64,000 nucleotides of DNA. Source: an uncultured Alphaproteobacteria bacterium. Lineage in GTDB: Bacteria; Electryoneota; RPQS01. Location: NCBI GenBank assembly GCA_964444755.1, contig CAYUIF010000001.1:238402-302401 (forward strand), in the 5' to 3' direction. Position numbers and translations under genes: made by a program. Positions 9,940 through 61,600 of this stretch are shown piece by piece. Every line of letters starts with the position of its first letter. The first letter of the stretch is position 1. Below the pieces are notes generated by a model. It made no database searches and was not told the DNA's origin. It worked only from the letters and a program-made list of their open reading frames with translations.

Positions 9940-10066
9940 CGCCGCATGGATTTTCCCATGCGGCGTTTTGTATCTGTATTCTGTAGGGGCACAGCGCGCT
10001 GTGCCCTTCTCTTCGCCGAGCGAGGTCGCCGACCTCGCCGGAATCATTCACTTTTTGTATCGGTTG
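9940..10066. repeat. REP-like palindromic elements
   Basis: tgtaggggcacagcgcgctgtgccc (GTAG + hairpin) and ttcgccgag-cgaggtcg-cc-gacctcg-ccggaatc. Confidence 0.55.
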
Positions 10067-25260: not shown

Positions 25261-25289
25261 ACGATAAGCGATGAACCGGATTTGTAGCG

Positions 25290-25546
25290 CCCAGCTTGCT
25301 GGGCTTTGTTTCGCCGAGTGGGGTTTGTTTCCCCCTGCTTCAGCGGGGGGATGAAAGGGGGGCGTATTCCGGGCACAGCACGCAGTGCCCCTACGGAAAA
25401 GAACGGGCGGGTACGCTTGCACTTTACCCGCCCCTACGGAAGACGGCCATAATGAATTATGGCCCTACAAAACGCAAGATGTTACAATCGGTAGGGGTCG
25501 TTCGAGAACGACCCGCGGGCGGTTCGCGAACCGCCCCTACAGCACG
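25290..25546. repeat. Composite REP/BIME-like element
   Basis: ttcgccgag...; gggcacagcacgcagtgcccctac; ggccataatgaattatggccctaca; cgcgaaccgcccctacagcacgtt. This block is about 80% identical to 51215-51480. Confidence 0.6.
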
Positions 25547-25843: not shown

Positions 25844-27061
25844 CTAGCTTGTATCTCCGGCCACGACGATACATCGTCCGCGCCAGCCTTCCGTGTCCAG
25901 ATCATCCCACGCTCCGATGGCGAAATCATCAATCCCGTCTCCGTTCACATCCCCCAAGCCCGCCGCTGTCTGAAGACTGACGAGATTCTGCCAACCCCGA
26001 CCATAAATCGTCCACGCCGGTTGAGAGTTAAGCGCCGACTGTCCGAGATACAGCGACAGAACGCCCCACCATGATCCGGGACAATAGCTCCGGATTAACG
26101 CCATGTCCTTGAAACCATCTGCATTTATGTCCCCTAAGCTTGCAACCACTTCCGCACCGGACCCACAAGGGTAGGACAATTGGACATCTGCAACGGAATG
26201 AAGAACGGAACCACCCAAATGAACATCTGCACCACCTTGATATGTATAGATCAGCTCGTCGCAACGGTTTGCATTTAGGTCATTGACAATCCCTTCCGGA
26301 AATATCCGCATGTTCGGCCATGTATAAGCCGGAATTGTGTCGGGATATGTGTTTCCGAGGAAAATGTAAGTCGTGTTTGACATCAAGGTCGCACTCACCC
26401 AATCGCTATATCCGTCATCATTCAAATCGCCGTAGGATTGGGGGAGTGCTTGGTAGGAATTCCCCGATGGGCTGGTTCGACTCCAATCCGGTATCCAATC
26501 AATTATATTGTTGCCATAGAAAATGTCAATATAATCAGGGATTGTATGATACCAGAAAAGATCGGATTGTTCGTCGCCATTGAAATCACCCACGGTTCCG
26601 AAATAGTCGTTTCGTCCAATTAGTAGGCTGTATTCCGGAATCGTATCCGCGGCATTGCCACCCCAGAAGACATCAACTATGCAGTAATCAAAACTTTCCG
26701 ACCGGCGTTTCGTGAACCAATCCACATACCCATCCCCATTCACATCGTTCAGAATCCCCGCCATTCCCCAGCCCCACAGATTGGACGGACCGAAGATCGT
26801 CATGTAAGGAATGTTGGAGGGTGGATTGCCGCCGTGAAAGAACTCAACATATGGCCACTGATTCCCCACAACAATCCGGTTTCCCCCCGCCGCTACCGCC
26901 CAATCATCGAATCCGTCATCGTTCTGATCGCCCAGCGGAAGGATCTCGTAGCCGTATAGCGAGCTATCCTGTAATCCACTCCGATCCCAGATCACCTCCG
27001 GCGACCACGGCTGGGCAAGCAGGGAAGATGCGAGGAACAGGATAATGAAGAGAGGTTTCAT
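25844..27061 (-). CDS. Secreted FG-GAP/VCBS-repeat protein (truncated before its T9SS C-terminal domain)
   Basis: Signal MKPLFIILFLASSLLAQP. Repeated D.N.DG..D calcium-binding FG-GAP-type loops (DQNDDGFDDW, DVNGDGYVDW, DLNDDGYSDW, DINADGFKDM, DVNGDGIDDF). Confidence 0.75.
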   Translation of the reverse strand: MKPLFIILFLASSLLAQPWSPEVIWDRSGLQDSSLYGYEILPLGDQNDDGFDDWAVAAGGNRIVVGNQWPYVEFFHGGNPPSNIPYMTIFGPSNLWGWGMAGILNDVNGDGYVDWFTKRRSESFDYCIVDVFWGGNAADTIPEYSLLIGRNDYFGTVGDFNGDEQSDLFWYHTIPDYIDIFYGNNIIDWIPDWSRTSPSGNSYQALPQSYGDLNDDGYSDWVSATLMSNTTYIFLGNTYPDTIPAYTWPNMRIFPEGIVNDLNANRCDELIYTYQGGADVHLGGSVLHSVADVQLSYPCGSGAEVVASLGDINADGFKDMALIRSYCPGSWWGVLSLYLGQSALNSQPAWTIYGRGWQNLVSLQTAAGLGDVNGDGIDDFAIGAWDDLDTEGWRGRCIVVAGDTS

Positions 27062-27560
27062 GGTACGGTCTTTAGTAGGCGGTTAGCCGGGCAGGTTGAG
27101 AACCTGCCGCGGCGAGGTCGTTGCGAGAAGATTCCGGGCAGATCAGGGGATCTGCCTCGGCGAAGACGGGCACGGCATGCCGTGCCCCTACGGAAGACGG
27201 CCATAATAAATTATGGCCCTACAAGACGGACGCGATGAATCGGCCCCTACAGGACGATGCGTTGCAGTTGTTCCGGCGGGGTAGAAAACCCCGCTCGGCG
27301 AATACATGGGCACAGCACGCTGTGCCCCTACGAAAACAAAGATTCCGGCCAGGTTGCGGTCTGCGACCTTAACCACGGCTCGGCAAGATCGTTACGTGAA
27401 GATTCCGGGCAGATCAGGGGATCTGCCTCGGCGAAGACGGGCACGGCATGCCGTGCCCCTACCGCGTGTGCGATTCCGGCAGGGGTAGGGACCCCGCTCG
27501 GTGAATACGCGTGCAATGGTGCAATATGCAGGGCTTTACAAGGAAAGGCAATTGAATCCC
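27062..27560. repeat. REP/BIME-like element array
   Basis: gattccgggcagatcaggggatctgcctcggcgaa (twice); gggcacggcatgccgtgcccctac (twice); ggccataataaattatggccctaca; ttccggcggggtagaaaaccccgctcggcgaa; gggcacagcacgctgtgcccctac. Confidence 0.65.
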
Positions 27561-50944: not shown

Positions 50945-50978
50945 GGGCGACTCTTCGGAGTCGCCCGTTTTTTTTCGC
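50945..50978 (+). terminator. Rho-independent terminator
   Basis: gggcgactc-ttcg-gagtcgccc, then GTTTTTTTT. Confidence 0.7.
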
Positions 50979-50979
50979 C

Positions 50980-51480
50980 GATGCACCCGTCCGCGGGTGC
51001 CCGGAACTTTCGGAATTCGCCGCGGCAGGCTCTCAGCCTGCCCGGCTAACCAGCACAATCGTTGGTCATCCTGAACGCCGTGAAGGATCTCGCTTACGCC
51101 ACCGTGGCGGGTGTGTCACCCGCCCGGTAATATGCGGGTCTCCCTCCGTTTACGGGGGGACGGAAGGGGGGATTCGCCGAGGCAGATCCCCTGATCTGCC
51201 CGGAATCTTGTAGCGCCCCGCTTGCTGGGCTTTATTCGCCGAGTAGAGTTTGTTTCCCCCTACTTTAGTGGGGGGATAAAAGGGGGGTGCATTCCGGGCA
51301 CAACCCGCTGTGCCCCTACCGAAGACGGCCATAATGAAGTATGGCCCTACAAAGTGCGGGAATTTTACATCTGGGAGGGGTCGTTCGCGAACCGCCCCTA
51401 CAGCACGTTGCATCGCAGTAATGATCGCCGCGGCAGGTTCTTAACCTGCCCGGCTCACCGCGAATAATCGTTTGTCATCC
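50980..51480. repeat. REP/BIME-like element array
   Basis: ttttcgccgatgcacccgtccgcgggtgcccggaac; cgcggcaggctctcagcctgcccggct; ttcgccgaggcagatcccctgatctgcccggaatc; gggcacaacccgctgtgcccctac; ggccataatgaagtatggccctaca; cgcgaaccgcccctacagcacgtt. Confidence 0.65.
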
Positions 51481-51553
51481 TGAACGCAGTGAAGGATCTC
51501 TCTTCGATGTTAGGGATTCTTCAGCCTGCTGACGCAGACTTCAGAATGACACT
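51473..51553. mobile_element. MITE-like ~80-bp element with ~12-bp terminal inverted repeats
   Basis: TGTCATCCTGAAcgcagtgaaggatctctcttcgatgttagggattcttcagcctgctgacgcagacTTCAGAATGACA. A second full copy lies at 54081-54160 and a partial copy at 51064-51100. Confidence 0.45.
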
Positions 51554-51588
51554 CTCTTGTGAAGGCTTTTAAGTTTTAAGTTTTAAGT

Positions 51589-53967
51589 TTATTTCAAGAG
51601 CACTATCTTCCGCACTTGCGACCGCTCCCCCGCTTGCACTCGGGACAGATATACTCCCGATGGTAGTTCGCTTGCATCGAACAGATGCCGATGTTCTCCC
51701 GCGTTCAACCGCCCGAGGTTTTCTTCATATACGGTTTGGCCGAGGACGTTGTAAACGCTCACGGTTACTGGTGCCGAGTGCGGCAACGTGAAGGATAGTG
51801 TTGCAGTAGGATTAAACGGATTGGGGTAAGTGGAAAGAGTGAAGGATGAGGATTGAGGGATGAAGGGATCTCTCGCAGATTGGGATGACAAATCCATTCG
51901 CAATAAGAAACCGGTAGAAGGTTGCGGGAACATGGCATTAGAAGTGATCGGAAACTCATTGGAGAATGTGTGTCCGGCTAACCAAATAGCACCGGGATGG
52001 TCATATACCAAGGCATCCGTCCATTCGTCGTATTCTCCACCGATATACGTGCAGTATTCCAACGCTGTAAAATCGGAAGACAACCGACAGAGAAACAAAT
52101 CTTCGCCGTTCTCTTCACCGGGGTGAAGTGTACTGTCATAGGCATCGGGAGTTACGGGTAAATCGCCGCTATGGGTAATCCCAGGAATCAGAATCGACAC
52201 CGCAGATTCCACATAGGCATTATTCCAAATATCATAATCACTACCGCCGAAAAATGTCCCCCGCAGAGGAGTATTCGGCAATTGAAAATCCAAGATGAAT
52301 CCATCATAAAATGAAGGTGGTCCGGGATTCAATCCCCCCGGTGGCATCGGGAAGTTGGGATTATTCGTATAGCCGATTAGCAATAACCGGTCGTCCCCTT
52401 GCACAATGATTTGGCAAAGATAGTCGTTTTCATATCCGCTATGGGGCGCGCCCAAATAGGATGCATATTCGACACTATTACTATTCAAATCCACTCGCGC
52501 GAAATACCCCGAATACCGCCCCGTTGTCTCGGAGATGAATGCATCGGGAGTGGTTGGCAATCCTCCTGCACCATTATAGTCTAATAACACAATCCACAGA
52601 TATCCCGGCGATAGAACCACAAGATCCATGGGAAACCATCTTCCACCCAAAATCGGACTGTAAAAGGTCGAATAGACTAATGCCCCAGTTGTGTCAAAGA
52701 TTGCTAAAAATGTGCATTCAATACCTACGAACTCGCCCCACATCGCACCGGGAGTAACGGGAAAGTCTGAGGATTGTGTCCTCCCAGAAATATAGAATCG
52801 CCCCAGTGAATCTACCTCACAGTCGGATAAGGATTCATCATCCACACCTCCCAAATAGGTGCAGAACAGCAGACTATCTCCGTGTGATGTCAAATGAATC
52901 ACACCAAGTTCACTGGAAGCATTTACTGTATCAAATGCGTCCGGCGATAGCGGCCAACCGGATGAAGCATTACTTGCGATATATATGGAATTATCAGTAA
53001 GCGTTCGAACTTTACCGTAAAATCCGCTACCTCCCGAGATATAGGTTGAAAAGATCAGGGAATCGGCATTCGGTGAGAATTTCATCAGGAAACCACCGCC
53101 AGTGCCGGTCTCCTGAAACGCGCCGGGAGTTGTGGGAAAGTTTGCGCGCCAAGTATCTCCATGAATCAATTTATTGCCAAGACCGTCCTTTGTCATATCA
53201 AAGACTTCATCGCGAATTGACCCGGCAATGTACGTACTATACACCAGCGGATCAATCACCAGTTCTGCACTGCGGTTGTACTCCTCACATATCAGACCAT
53301 AACGATTGTTTCCCAACAGCCGATACTGCACCCGAATGCTGGCTTGCCTGCGGCTTTCGATCTGAAAAGCGAACGGGGCCTTTTCGTAAAGATCGCCCAC
53401 GGACGTGACCAAAACCAGCTTGCCCTCGCCATCCATCCGCAACGGCTCATCCAAGCCCTCATACTGAACCACGATTCGGCTGACATCGGCACCCGGCTTG
53501 ACATGAAAAAACGTTTCCACGCCGCGCGGATCGGCCTTATATTCCACATCAATCCCCGGCCACACCTCCTTGGCAATCACTCTGCCGTAGTTAGGCACCC
53601 GGCTCTTCCACTGGCTTTGGTCTCTTCCCTTGAAATAGTTGCTGTAGCTGGTGAGCCTGTCCTCCGGCACCAGTTCGTACTGTTCATTACACCCCACTAA
53701 CCTCACCATCACCGCATGCCCGCGCACCGTCCGCGCCGTATCTTGAGGCACGTATCTTTCGGCTTCATCCCTCATCCTTCGTCCTTCATCCTTTGCTGTC
53801 ACGGCAATCGTCATCCCCGTCCCGGTCAGAAAATAGCTCGCGTTCCCTACGTCACACCGATAGGCAAACTCCCCCTCCCACTGACCCTGATTCGGCTCGA
53901 AGTGGAAGGGAGCGGGGAGCGCGAAAGCGACGGAAACGAAAAGAAGAGTGAGGAAGAAAGGTTTCAT
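51589..53967 (-). CDS. T9SS-sorted beta-propeller (SBBP-like repeat) protein (792 aa)
   Basis: Signal MKPFFLTLLFVSVAFALPAP. C-terminal YPNPFNPTATLSFTLPHSAPVTVSVYNVLGQTVYEENLGRLNAGEHRHLFDASELPSGVYLSRVQAGERSQVRKIVLLK is nearly identical to the detached C-terminal domain at 25547-25792. Confidence 0.8.
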   Translation of the reverse strand: MKPFFLTLLFVSVAFALPAPFHFEPNQGQWEGEFAYRCDVGNASYFLTGTGMTIAVTAKDEGRRMRDEAERYVPQDTARTVRGHAVMVRLVGCNEQYELVPEDRLTSYSNYFKGRDQSQWKSRVPNYGRVIAKEVWPGIDVEYKADPRGVETFFHVKPGADVSRIVVQYEGLDEPLRMDGEGKLVLVTSVGDLYEKAPFAFQIESRRQASIRVQYRLLGNNRYGLICEEYNRSAELVIDPLVYSTYIAGSIRDEVFDMTKDGLGNKLIHGDTWRANFPTTPGAFQETGTGGGFLMKFSPNADSLIFSTYISGGSGFYGKVRTLTDNSIYIASNASSGWPLSPDAFDTVNASSELGVIHLTSHGDSLLFCTYLGGVDDESLSDCEVDSLGRFYISGRTQSSDFPVTPGAMWGEFVGIECTFLAIFDTTGALVYSTFYSPILGGRWFPMDLVVLSPGYLWIVLLDYNGAGGLPTTPDAFISETTGRYSGYFARVDLNSNSVEYASYLGAPHSGYENDYLCQIIVQGDDRLLLIGYTNNPNFPMPPGGLNPGPPSFYDGFILDFQLPNTPLRGTFFGGSDYDIWNNAYVESAVSILIPGITHSGDLPVTPDAYDSTLHPGEENGEDLFLCRLSSDFTALEYCTYIGGEYDEWTDALVYDHPGAIWLAGHTFSNEFPITSNAMFPQPSTGFLLRMDLSSQSARDPFIPQSSSFTLSTYPNPFNPTATLSFTLPHSAPVTVSVYNVLGQTVYEENLGRLNAGEHRHLFDASELPSGVYLSRVQAGERSQVRKIVLLK

Positions 53968-54328
53968 GGTACGGTCTTTAGTAAGCAGTTAGCCGGGCAG
54001 GTTGAGAACCTGCCGCGGCGATGTCGTTGCGATGCGGTTCTTCCGGCGGGGTAGAAAACCCCGCTCGGCGAACACACGAGTGTCATCCTGAACGTAGTGA
54101 AGGATCTCTCTTCGATGCAAGGGATTCTGGACGCCCGCTGACGCGGTATCCAGAATGACACATTAATGTCACGTTCCGGGCACCCGGGGACGGGTGCCGC
54201 GGCGAAGACGGGCACGGCATGCCGTGCCCCTACCAAACGGACGGTACAACCCCCCTTTAATCCCCCCGCTGAAGCAGGGGGAAATATATACACGGGCGGG
54301 TGACACACCCGCCACGGTGATGATAGGT
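53968..54328. repeat. REP/BIME-like array including a MITE-like copy (54081-54160)
   Basis: The first ~60 nt after the gene start are nearly identical to 27062-27120 (shared upstream block). ttccggcggggtagaaaaccccgctcggcgaa; gggcacggcatgccgtgcccctac; ccccccgctgaagcaggggg. Confidence 0.6.
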
Positions 54329-61499: not shown

Positions 61500-61600
61500 A
61501 TGAGGAGGATTGCAAGGGAAAGACGGGCGGTTCGCGAGCCGCCCATAAAGGAAAGGGCACAGCACGCTGTGCCCCTACGGAAGAAATATTTGATGATTGC
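61500..61600. repeat. REP-like elements
   Basis: gggcggttcgcgagccgccc; gggcacagcacgctgtgcccctacggaag. Confidence 0.55.

Follow-up and report, generated by a model that had tools for sequence, protein, structure and literature searches.

GTC-tagged head-to-head hairpin dimers in intergenic repeat arrays and their association with Ssn-type GIY-YIG nuclease genes

The element and its hairpin arms

The window analysed here is a 64,000-nt stretch of contig CAYUIF010000001.1 (assembly GCA_964444755.1, positions 238,402 to 302,401 of the forward strand) from an uncultured bacterium of the Electryoneota lineage, a metagenome-assembled genome that the analysis places in Calditrichota. It carries a short element in two 81-nt copies on the plus strand, copy a at 51473–51553 and copy b at 54081–54161. 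These flank a minus-strand gene for a 792-amino-acid protein with a type IX secretion system (T9SS) sorting domain (51589–53967). Copy a lies 36 nt past the stop codon of this gene, and copy b about 114 nt upstream of its start codon, in the intergenic region between two co-directional minus-strand genes. The intergenic DNA around both copies is dense with other hairpin repeats, including GTAG-tagged repetitive extragenic palindromic (REP) sequences. A preliminary description of the locus, which likened the element to a miniature inverted-repeat transposable element (MITE), was right in describing it as non-coding, set in REP arrays, and present in at least two full copies that are about 85% identical (70 of 82 aligned columns).

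The same description reported terminal inverted repeats (TIRs) of roughly 12 bp. Inverted ends of this kind do exist, with the termini TGTCATCCTGAACG ... TTCAGAATGACAC, but copy b ends instead in TCCAGAATGACAC, and the ‘TIRs’ amount to no more than the outer portions of a pair of inverted hairpin arms, each 26–40 nt long. Both copies are head-to-head dimers of such arms, with their tags facing outward. In its typical form, an arm combines a (T/C)GTC tag, which is unpaired, with a closing stem of 5 bp, tandem G.A pairs, and a mini-hairpin inside them (GTC-ATCCT-GA-ACGnAGT-GA-AGGAT). The mini-hairpin has a 2-bp stem and a GNA loop of 3 nt, or a longer hairpin takes its place, with inserts of up to about 50 nt.

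Copy a is made up of a left, short arm (51473–51500, plus strand), a 12-nt spacer, TCTTCGATGTTA (51501–51512), and a right, long arm (51513–51551, minus strand). Its short arm has a T-GTC tag followed by ATCCT-GA-ACGCAGT-GA-AGGAT and a CTC tail, while the long arm has a T-GTC tag followed by ATTCT-GA-[AGTCTGC-GTCA-GCAGGCT]-GA-AGAAT and a CCC tail, its inner part forming a 7-bp stem with a 4-nt loop. Both fit the definition of what is here called the GA-type arm. The short arm of copy b (54081–54108, plus strand; T-GTC tag, ATCCT-GA-ACGTAGT-GA-AGGAT, CTC tail) is followed by a near-identical spacer, TCTTCGATGCAA. The long arm of copy b (54121–54160, minus strand) is a variant, in which the T-GTC tag is followed by ATTCTGGA-[.CCGC-GTCA-GCGG..]-TCCAGAAT. 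It has an 8-bp closing stem with Watson–Crick pairs in place of the G.A pairs, and fails the strict GA-type definition. The inner stems of the two long arms differ by compensatory change, CCGC/GCGG in copy b against CTGC/GCAG in copy a.

A fifth arm stands alone at 51064–51091 on the plus strand (G-GTC tag, ATCCT-GA-ACGCCGT-GA-AGGAT, CTC). What had been taken for a truncated copy at 51064–51100 is thus a complete solo arm, GTCATCCTGAACGCCGTGAAGGATCTC at 51065–51091. In all five arms of the 64 kb, GTC directly precedes a stem that starts with an A-T pair. The G at position -1 of the solo arm is atypical, as 85% of 170 dimer ends across the family have T here and 10% have C. Directly before the tag, AATCGTT(T/G) forms a common outer flank in three Calditrichota arms (window positions 51051–51064 and 51460–51472, and about 196–205 of L263, a related contig), and the repeated unit in this lineage may extend some 8 nt beyond the arm.

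The 5' 27-mer common to both copies occurs three times in the window, against an expectation of 0.00 from 100 shuffles, and a search with nhmmer, all filters off, found no further copies in the 64 kb. Since two full copies and one arm all fall within 3.1 kb, chance similarity or a by-product of local segmental duplication might be suspected. However, no chance matches are expected in the window, hundreds of independent copies occur in unrelated genomes, and the flanks of copies a and b differ, so the two do not lie within one larger segmental duplication. This explanation, of which the preliminary description had itself considered the segmental-duplication form, can practically be dismissed, because many independent copies lie in unrelated contexts.

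The arm-local fold is strongly supported by covariation. In a scan of viral contigs, the two free positions of a purine–pyrimidine pair were G..C in 58 cases, A..T in 9, G..T in 3, and A..C in none. In 3' arms, which the search had left unconstrained, the middle pair of the closing stem was T-A in 43 cases, C-G in 41, G-C in 3, and unpaired in 2, whereas pairing over a long range with the other arm would give C.A mismatches in 45 of the same 89. When matches were defined by anchors only (GTCA-N4-GA-N7-GA-N4-T), 78 of 89 had fully complementary N4 and N4' segments, where 0.35 were expected, and at least six different stems were represented. Inner stems vary by compensatory change or by symmetric lengthening. 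A formal covariation count gave 95.7% paired positions, with both sides changed at six of seven pairs and the first pair A-T in 89 of 89 arms. Compensatory cells numbered 83, against 18 ± 3.5 in shuffles, of which none in 500 reached as high a value, and the paired fraction dropped to 20–52% in every slid register. The arm-local hairpin is under selection. Folded alone as single-stranded DNA (ssDNA), the right arm of copy a adopts the described shape at -7.2 kcal/mol (z -2.9), and that of copy b reaches -11.1 kcal/mol (z -4.6).

Distribution of the arms and their link to nuclease genes

The arms are widely dispersed. Among the matches listed, the exact 26-nt arm variant of the window is present in the genomes of more than 120 GTDB species. 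These span at least 10 phyla, including Nitrospirota, Bacillota, Bacteroidota, Patescibacteria, Chloroflexota, Pseudomonadota, Acidobacteriota, Omnitrophota, and Verrucomicrobiota, and take in isolates such as Nitrolancea hollandica and Legionella bononiensis. In degenerate form, the 26-nt arm is found in 61 viral contigs. By calculation, a pattern with 25 specified bases should match about 0.001 times by chance in 1.2e12 positions. The canonical element consists of a 5' arm, a 10–90-nt spacer, and an inverted 3' arm. About 43% of 5' arms have a partner within 150 nt and about 57% are solo. Loci selected for their arms yielded 85 distinct dimers in head-to-head orientation. Their median length is 75 nt, and the window copies are therefore typical of the family. 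Copies occur in all contexts and orientations, including within phage genomes.

Several smaller features recur among these copies. Many have an extra partial TGTCATCCTGAA placed 8–12 nt outside the arm, which creates a nested outer stem (loci L109, L167, L177, L099, L103, and L139; also L209 and L247), while others carry tandem arrays of a terminal ...GAATGACA segment (four units of GACACAGACGAAT in L167, three of a 33-nt unit in L209). Both features hint at events at the tag, either slippage or recurrent rounds of nicking and repair. Of the six reading frames of an arm, four are open, and the peptides VILSEAKDL, (C)HPERSEGS, RSFASLRMT, and ILRFAQDD appear in spurious or over-extended open reading frames (ORFs), for example in L062, L097, and L002. 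Translation of the arm has probably given rise to mis-annotated small proteins in metagenomes. Searches of Rfam with the window and with canonical copies, at gathering and at permissive thresholds, returned no relevant family, and literature searches with the DNA and peptide strings of the arm found nothing.

At four loci (L130, L179, L064, and L095), the order is 5' arm, an ORF of about 90 codons, and 3' arm, and Pfam assigns a GIY-YIG domain to the protein encoded between the arms. This association was examined at 80 metagenomic loci (253 kb) picked solely for encoding relatives of the nuclease, in which arms were counted by the design GTCA-N4-GA-(3-55)-GA-N4'-T. These loci hold 240 arms, compared with 0–2 in shuffled sequences. 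A + arm lies at most 200 nt upstream of the nuclease gene at 46 of 75 loci and a - arm at most 200 nt downstream at 51 of 76, with both present at 37 loci. Counting any arm up to 300 nt from the gene, 66 of the 80 loci qualify. The closing stems at these loci vary (ATTCT, ATCCT, ACCCT, ATGCT, ATTCC, ACTCT, ATCTC, and others), and GTCA and TGAC are constant.

In many loci, the TGA stop codon of the nuclease gene is the TGA of the terminal AGAATGACA, and the gene ends within a 3' arm reading ...AG(A/G)ATGACA at L184–L186, L205, L206, L209, L214, L224, L233, L236, L244, and L253. An ORF that ends inside the repeat may couple gene and repeat, or may reflect a unit boundary.

A consensus of the arm-linked nucleases has one match in Neisseria gonorrhoeae (50.6% identity, E 3e-20), and this locus is bordered by canonical NTS repeats. 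Judged by sequence, the arm-linked nuclease is a homologue of Neisseria SsnA. Searched by sequence against NCBIfam and the Protein Data Bank (PDB), the nuclease matched no named subfamily and no relative of known structure. Homologues beyond Neisseria are also flanked by tagged repeats. One on plasmid pNL2 of Novosphingobium lies between head-to-head copies of CGTC-GCCCCGTG-CTTGA-CACGGGGC, and a Planktothrix plasmid homologue that is 82% identical stands amid GA-type head-to-head heterodimers resembling those of the window. This last locus (L265, Planktothrix agardhii plasmid p1, NZ_LR882964.1, 18256–19716) contains the Ssn homologue WP_083616022.1 with several GA-type dimers, and the gene is situated between a type IIL MmeI restriction–modification gene and the DISARM gene drmA, that is, inside a defence island.

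The layout of arm, gene, and arm bears on whether the element is a classical MITE, an internally deleted insertion sequence (IS) moved in trans by a DDE transposase that recognises TIRs and generates target-site duplications (TSDs). The element is short and non-coding, it has inverted termini and several copies, and a longer, gene-carrying form with the same ends exists. However, TSDs of 2–8 nt, at offsets of 0–4, were at or below the permutation null in 85 independent dimers, and clustering of the ORFs that neighbour 181 arm-bearing loci revealed no recurrent transposase or other protein family, the clusters that did form being related phage contigs or translated repeat. The only gene found between matching arms is that of the single-domain GIY-YIG nuclease of about 90 amino acids, and SsnA has been described as a nuclease acting on ssDNA, not as a demonstrated transposase (PMC11893778). 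Moreover, the supposed TIRs form hairpins that covary, and arms often stand alone. A DDE-driven MITE is thus scarcely tenable. Of the earlier proposal of a non-autonomous MITE, the gene-less state, the wide dispersal, and the existence of a gene-carrying counterpart all stand, but the mechanism that the name implies does not, as neither TSDs nor a cognate IS with matching ends could be found.

Relation to Ssn systems and other repeat families

SsnA is a 94-amino-acid protein consisting of a single GIY-YIG domain (cd10448), described by Chenal et al. (2025, Nature Communications; PMC11893778). Together with its homologues, it binds GTC-tagged hairpin repeats (NTS, or ‘Ssn-related motifs’, SRMs) only as ssDNA and cuts upstream of them. 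Cleavage is specific to ssDNA and to one strand, depends on the tag, and is controlled by the 3 nt ahead of the palindrome. Motifs are found near 71% of Ssn homologues and on both sides of 42%, and the authors liken the NTS-ssnA-NTS arrangement to an IS (PMC11893778). The elements described here share with these repeats an oriented hairpin (a 20–50-nt inverted repeat), an unpaired HGTC tag that abuts, on the 5' side, a palindrome beginning with A-T, positions on both sides of single-domain GIY-YIG genes of about 90 codons, and many gene-less copies in intergenic clusters. They differ in that the stem is interrupted (5 bp, tandem G.A/A.G, an inner stem of 2 bp or longer, and a GNA loop), whereas the NTS stem is continuous over about 8–9 bp, and in that the window-type arms are near-identical over many phyla and viral contigs.

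A second group of known repeats is also close. Di Nocera, De Gregorio and Rocco (2013, BMC Genomics; PMC3733652) defined a superfamily of CGTC/TGTC-tagged REPs, including Neisseria dRS3 and Rickettsia RPE-4 and RPE-6, whose stems start with A-T and which mostly form head-to-head dimers, other pairings (tail-to-tail, head-to-tail) being rare. These REPs ‘seem lacking a dedicated transposase’ and were never seen flanking genes for REP-associated tyrosine transposases (RAYTs) (PMC3733652). The element resembles them in its unpaired tag at one end, A-T stem start, short 3' tail, head-to-head and often heterodimeric arrangement, and lack of an associated transposase, and also in its presence in genomes of the Bacteroidetes/Chlorobi group and Proteobacteria. 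The described families have an 8–9-bp stem, a 4–5-nt loop, and a CCA tail, in contrast to the 5-bp closing stem, G.A pairs, variable inner hairpin, and CTC or CCC tail of the window type. The element probably belongs to the Ssn-related motif family, which is part of this REP superfamily, and its arm design is distinct.

Taken together, each copy is probably a gene-less, non-autonomous, head-to-head heterodimer of Ssn-type (T/C)GTC-tagged hairpins, which an Ssn nuclease would bind and nick in trans and whose modules are reshuffled. During a single-stranded stage, such as replication, transformation, or a phage or conjugative intermediate, each arm would form a tagged stem-loop from its own strand. 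This hairpin could then be bound by an Ssn nuclease whose gene lies elsewhere in the genome, and the enzyme would nick the strand a few nucleotides to the 5' side of the GTC tag. At such nicks, hairpin modules might in turn be copied, shuffled, or deleted within the intergenic mosaic arrays by repair, template switching, or recombination. By analogy, GA-type arms would be cut in the same way as NTS-type hairpins. We infer a cognate Ssn in the source genome, and likewise the mode by which the copies spread.

The same architecture is familiar from REPINs and from bacterial interspersed mosaic elements (BIMEs). REPINs, doublets of REPs mobilised by RAYTs (IS200/IS605-like Y1 transposases; Bertels and Rainey 2011, PMC3116915), also consist of two inverted tagged hairpins and a spacer acting as a unit, with singlets as remnants, mosaic intergenic arrays, and no TSDs. 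They too are linked to a small single-copy nuclease gene flanked by the repeats. Further, the window holds 17 GTAG-tagged REP hairpins that share arrays with the element, some of them adjoining it. Nevertheless, it is very unlikely that the element is itself a REPIN. Its tag is (T/C)GTC rather than GTAG, no Y1 transposase recurs near the arms, and the literature reports that CGTC-tagged REPs never flank RAYT genes (PMC3733652). No RAYT gene was found in the window, where the gene between the two largest GTAG arrays (25844–27061) encodes a secreted repeat protein. It is another enzyme family, Ssn, of the GIY-YIG rather than the HUH/Y1 type, that is demonstrably flanked by the arms. In addition, the element is cross-phylum and phage-borne, while REPIN/RAYT systems are mostly lineage-restricted and vertically inherited. 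The likeness to MITEs such as Correia/NEMIS of Neisseria is of a more general kind, comprising small size, lack of coding capacity, inverted ends, multiple copies, and a longer gene-bearing counterpart. The element differs from these in having neither TSDs nor a DDE transposase, in ends that are hairpins recognised as structure plus tag, and in its common solo arms.

Several observations weigh against the proposal of Ssn-type hairpin dimers acted on in trans. The window itself holds no Ssn homologue, the best match having an E value of 0.87. Cleavage in vitro has been demonstrated only for NTS-type repeats, from Neisseria and Wolbachia (PMC11893778). The published SRM string, HGTCWYN(0-2)YYVSBRHN(0-5)WNVSBRGN(0-2)RNCYNB, matches canonical NTS, but neither any window arm nor the canonical GA-type arm. 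The Novosphingobium hairpins likewise go unmatched, only 2 of the 80 nuclease loci have the string nearby, and GA-type arms therefore fall outside the operational definition of that study. A head-to-head dimer has one tag on each strand, which makes the simple same-strand excision known from IS200/IS605 inapplicable. The minimum-energy fold of the whole element is a foldback rather than two separate hairpins, and the short arm has no predicted stability under nearest-neighbour DNA parameters (z +0.5), which give no credit to G.A tandems or GNA triloops. A classic example of a hyperstable DNA mini-hairpin is the oligonucleotide d(GCGAAGC).

Nuclease sequence also does not vary in step with the closing stem (0.659 against 0.655, a difference reached by 662 of 2000 permutations), and arms paired around one gene have the same closing stem in only 18 of 37 cases. 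Because the nuclease sequence does not track the stem, and paired arms share it in only this fraction of cases, recognition by shape plus tag is suggested, rather than by stem sequence.

A related Calditrichota genome (GCA_049322395.1) bears on the proposal from both sides, and has two informative loci, L262 and L264. Further arms occur in the related Calditrichota contigs L263 and L264. In L262, the upstream array and the 5' untranslated region (UTR) are as in the window, but about 142 nt are absent, comprising an 11-nt stretch, copy b, 8 nt, and one hairpin module. This indel is not a clean insertion of a single element. L264 has the hairpin module that L262 lacks, but is likewise without copy b. 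Copy a, by contrast, is present at the orthologous site downstream of the gene (L264, 5432–5512) and is 78/80 identical, and looks conserved in place rather than mobile. Between the window and L264, adjacent hairpin modules are about 95% or more identical, whereas a 17-nt linker is about 50% identical and the gene 45–91% per 100 nt. The comparison of the window with L262 and L264 indicates that each hairpin module is kept, or homogenised, as a unit, and that modules are gained or lost by the arrays, but it showed no clean insertion of a single element. Scans of viral collections found no precise empty sites among phage relatives. Directly past the stop codon of the 792-amino-acid gene, the window has a short tandem repeat, AAACTTA/AAAACTT (51562–51590, about three units), of which the orthologous 3' UTR in L264 has one 7-nt unit more.

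The position and conservation of copy a raise the question of a role at the RNA level, in a 3' UTR or intergenic transcript, through stabilisation of mRNA ends, termination or attenuation, or protein binding. At this locus, the link to the nuclease would then be incidental, and such a role is compatible with recognition by Ssn. Copy a is conserved along with the upstream 3' UTR, 36 nt past a stop codon, and both strands of the element as RNA fold better than shuffles (z -2.4 to -2.9). REPs of Escherichia coli stabilise upstream mRNA. Even so, no Rfam family matches at any threshold used, the element lacks a following T-tract, and a terminator and promoter scan was negative at both copies. Members of the family are found in every context and orientation, phage genomes among them, and single mismatches in the stems, a guide to the strand on which folding takes place, are few and show no bias for G.T/G.U over A.C (12 against 9, p 0.66). 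The invariance of the unpaired GTC tag speaks for recognition of DNA, as does the arm-gene-arm layout. An RNA-level role is accordingly rather unlikely as the main explanation for the element.

A bolder extension of the Ssn-based proposal is offered tentatively, as somewhat less probable than its negation. GA-type arms, with their TGTC tag, 5-bp stem, tandem G.A pairs, and GCGnAGC-like mini-hairpin, might constitute an undescribed Ssn specificity class, and the dimers might be non-autonomous elements moved in trans by a GIY-YIG ssDNA nuclease and spreading horizontally. If this is true, gene-less dimers would be the GIY-YIG counterpart of the REPIN/RAYT system. In contrast to REPINs, their spread would be horizontal, the near-identical 26-mers being shared by more than 10 phyla, by phages, and by plasmids, including within defence islands. 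On the Ssn-based proposal itself, the discovery of Ssn and its SRMs in 2025 is extended to a hairpin design invisible to the published string, and to phyla such as Calditrichota. Identification of the arm as an Ssn-associated hairpin would also clean up the annotation of small ORFs in metagenomes. The presence/absence site, the conserved copy, and the arm-gene-arm units provide natural material for studying the spread of GTC-tagged REPs and the roles of Ssn outside Neisseria.

Other repeats of the window

Besides the element, the intergenic arrays of the window contain three further kinds of hairpin repeat. The 17 GTAG-tagged REP hairpins are perfect (for example, GTAGGGGCACGGCATGCCGTGCCC and GTAGGGCCATAATTCATTATGGCC) and lie at 9983–10006, 25284–25540, 27168–27462, 51296–51350, 54210–54233, and 61555–61578. 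The same REP sequences are also present in the related Calditrichota contigs L262 and L264. A second repeat, TTCGCCG-N-GGCAGG/GCACCC followed by a loop, the complement, and CGG, has a stem of about 10 bp with one bulged base. It occurs in both orientations in two intergenic regions, at 50974–51007, 51017–51050, 51176–51205, 51424–51461, 53985–54022, and 54173–54206. One copy of this type (54176–54210, minus strand) begins with CGTC, and so happens to match the published SRM string. Lastly, hairpin modules with runs of C and G (TTTCCCCCTACTTTAGTGGGGGGATAAAAGGGGGG and relatives) are found at 51253–51288, 54249–54284, and 51137–51175, and are inverted between two regions of the same arrays.

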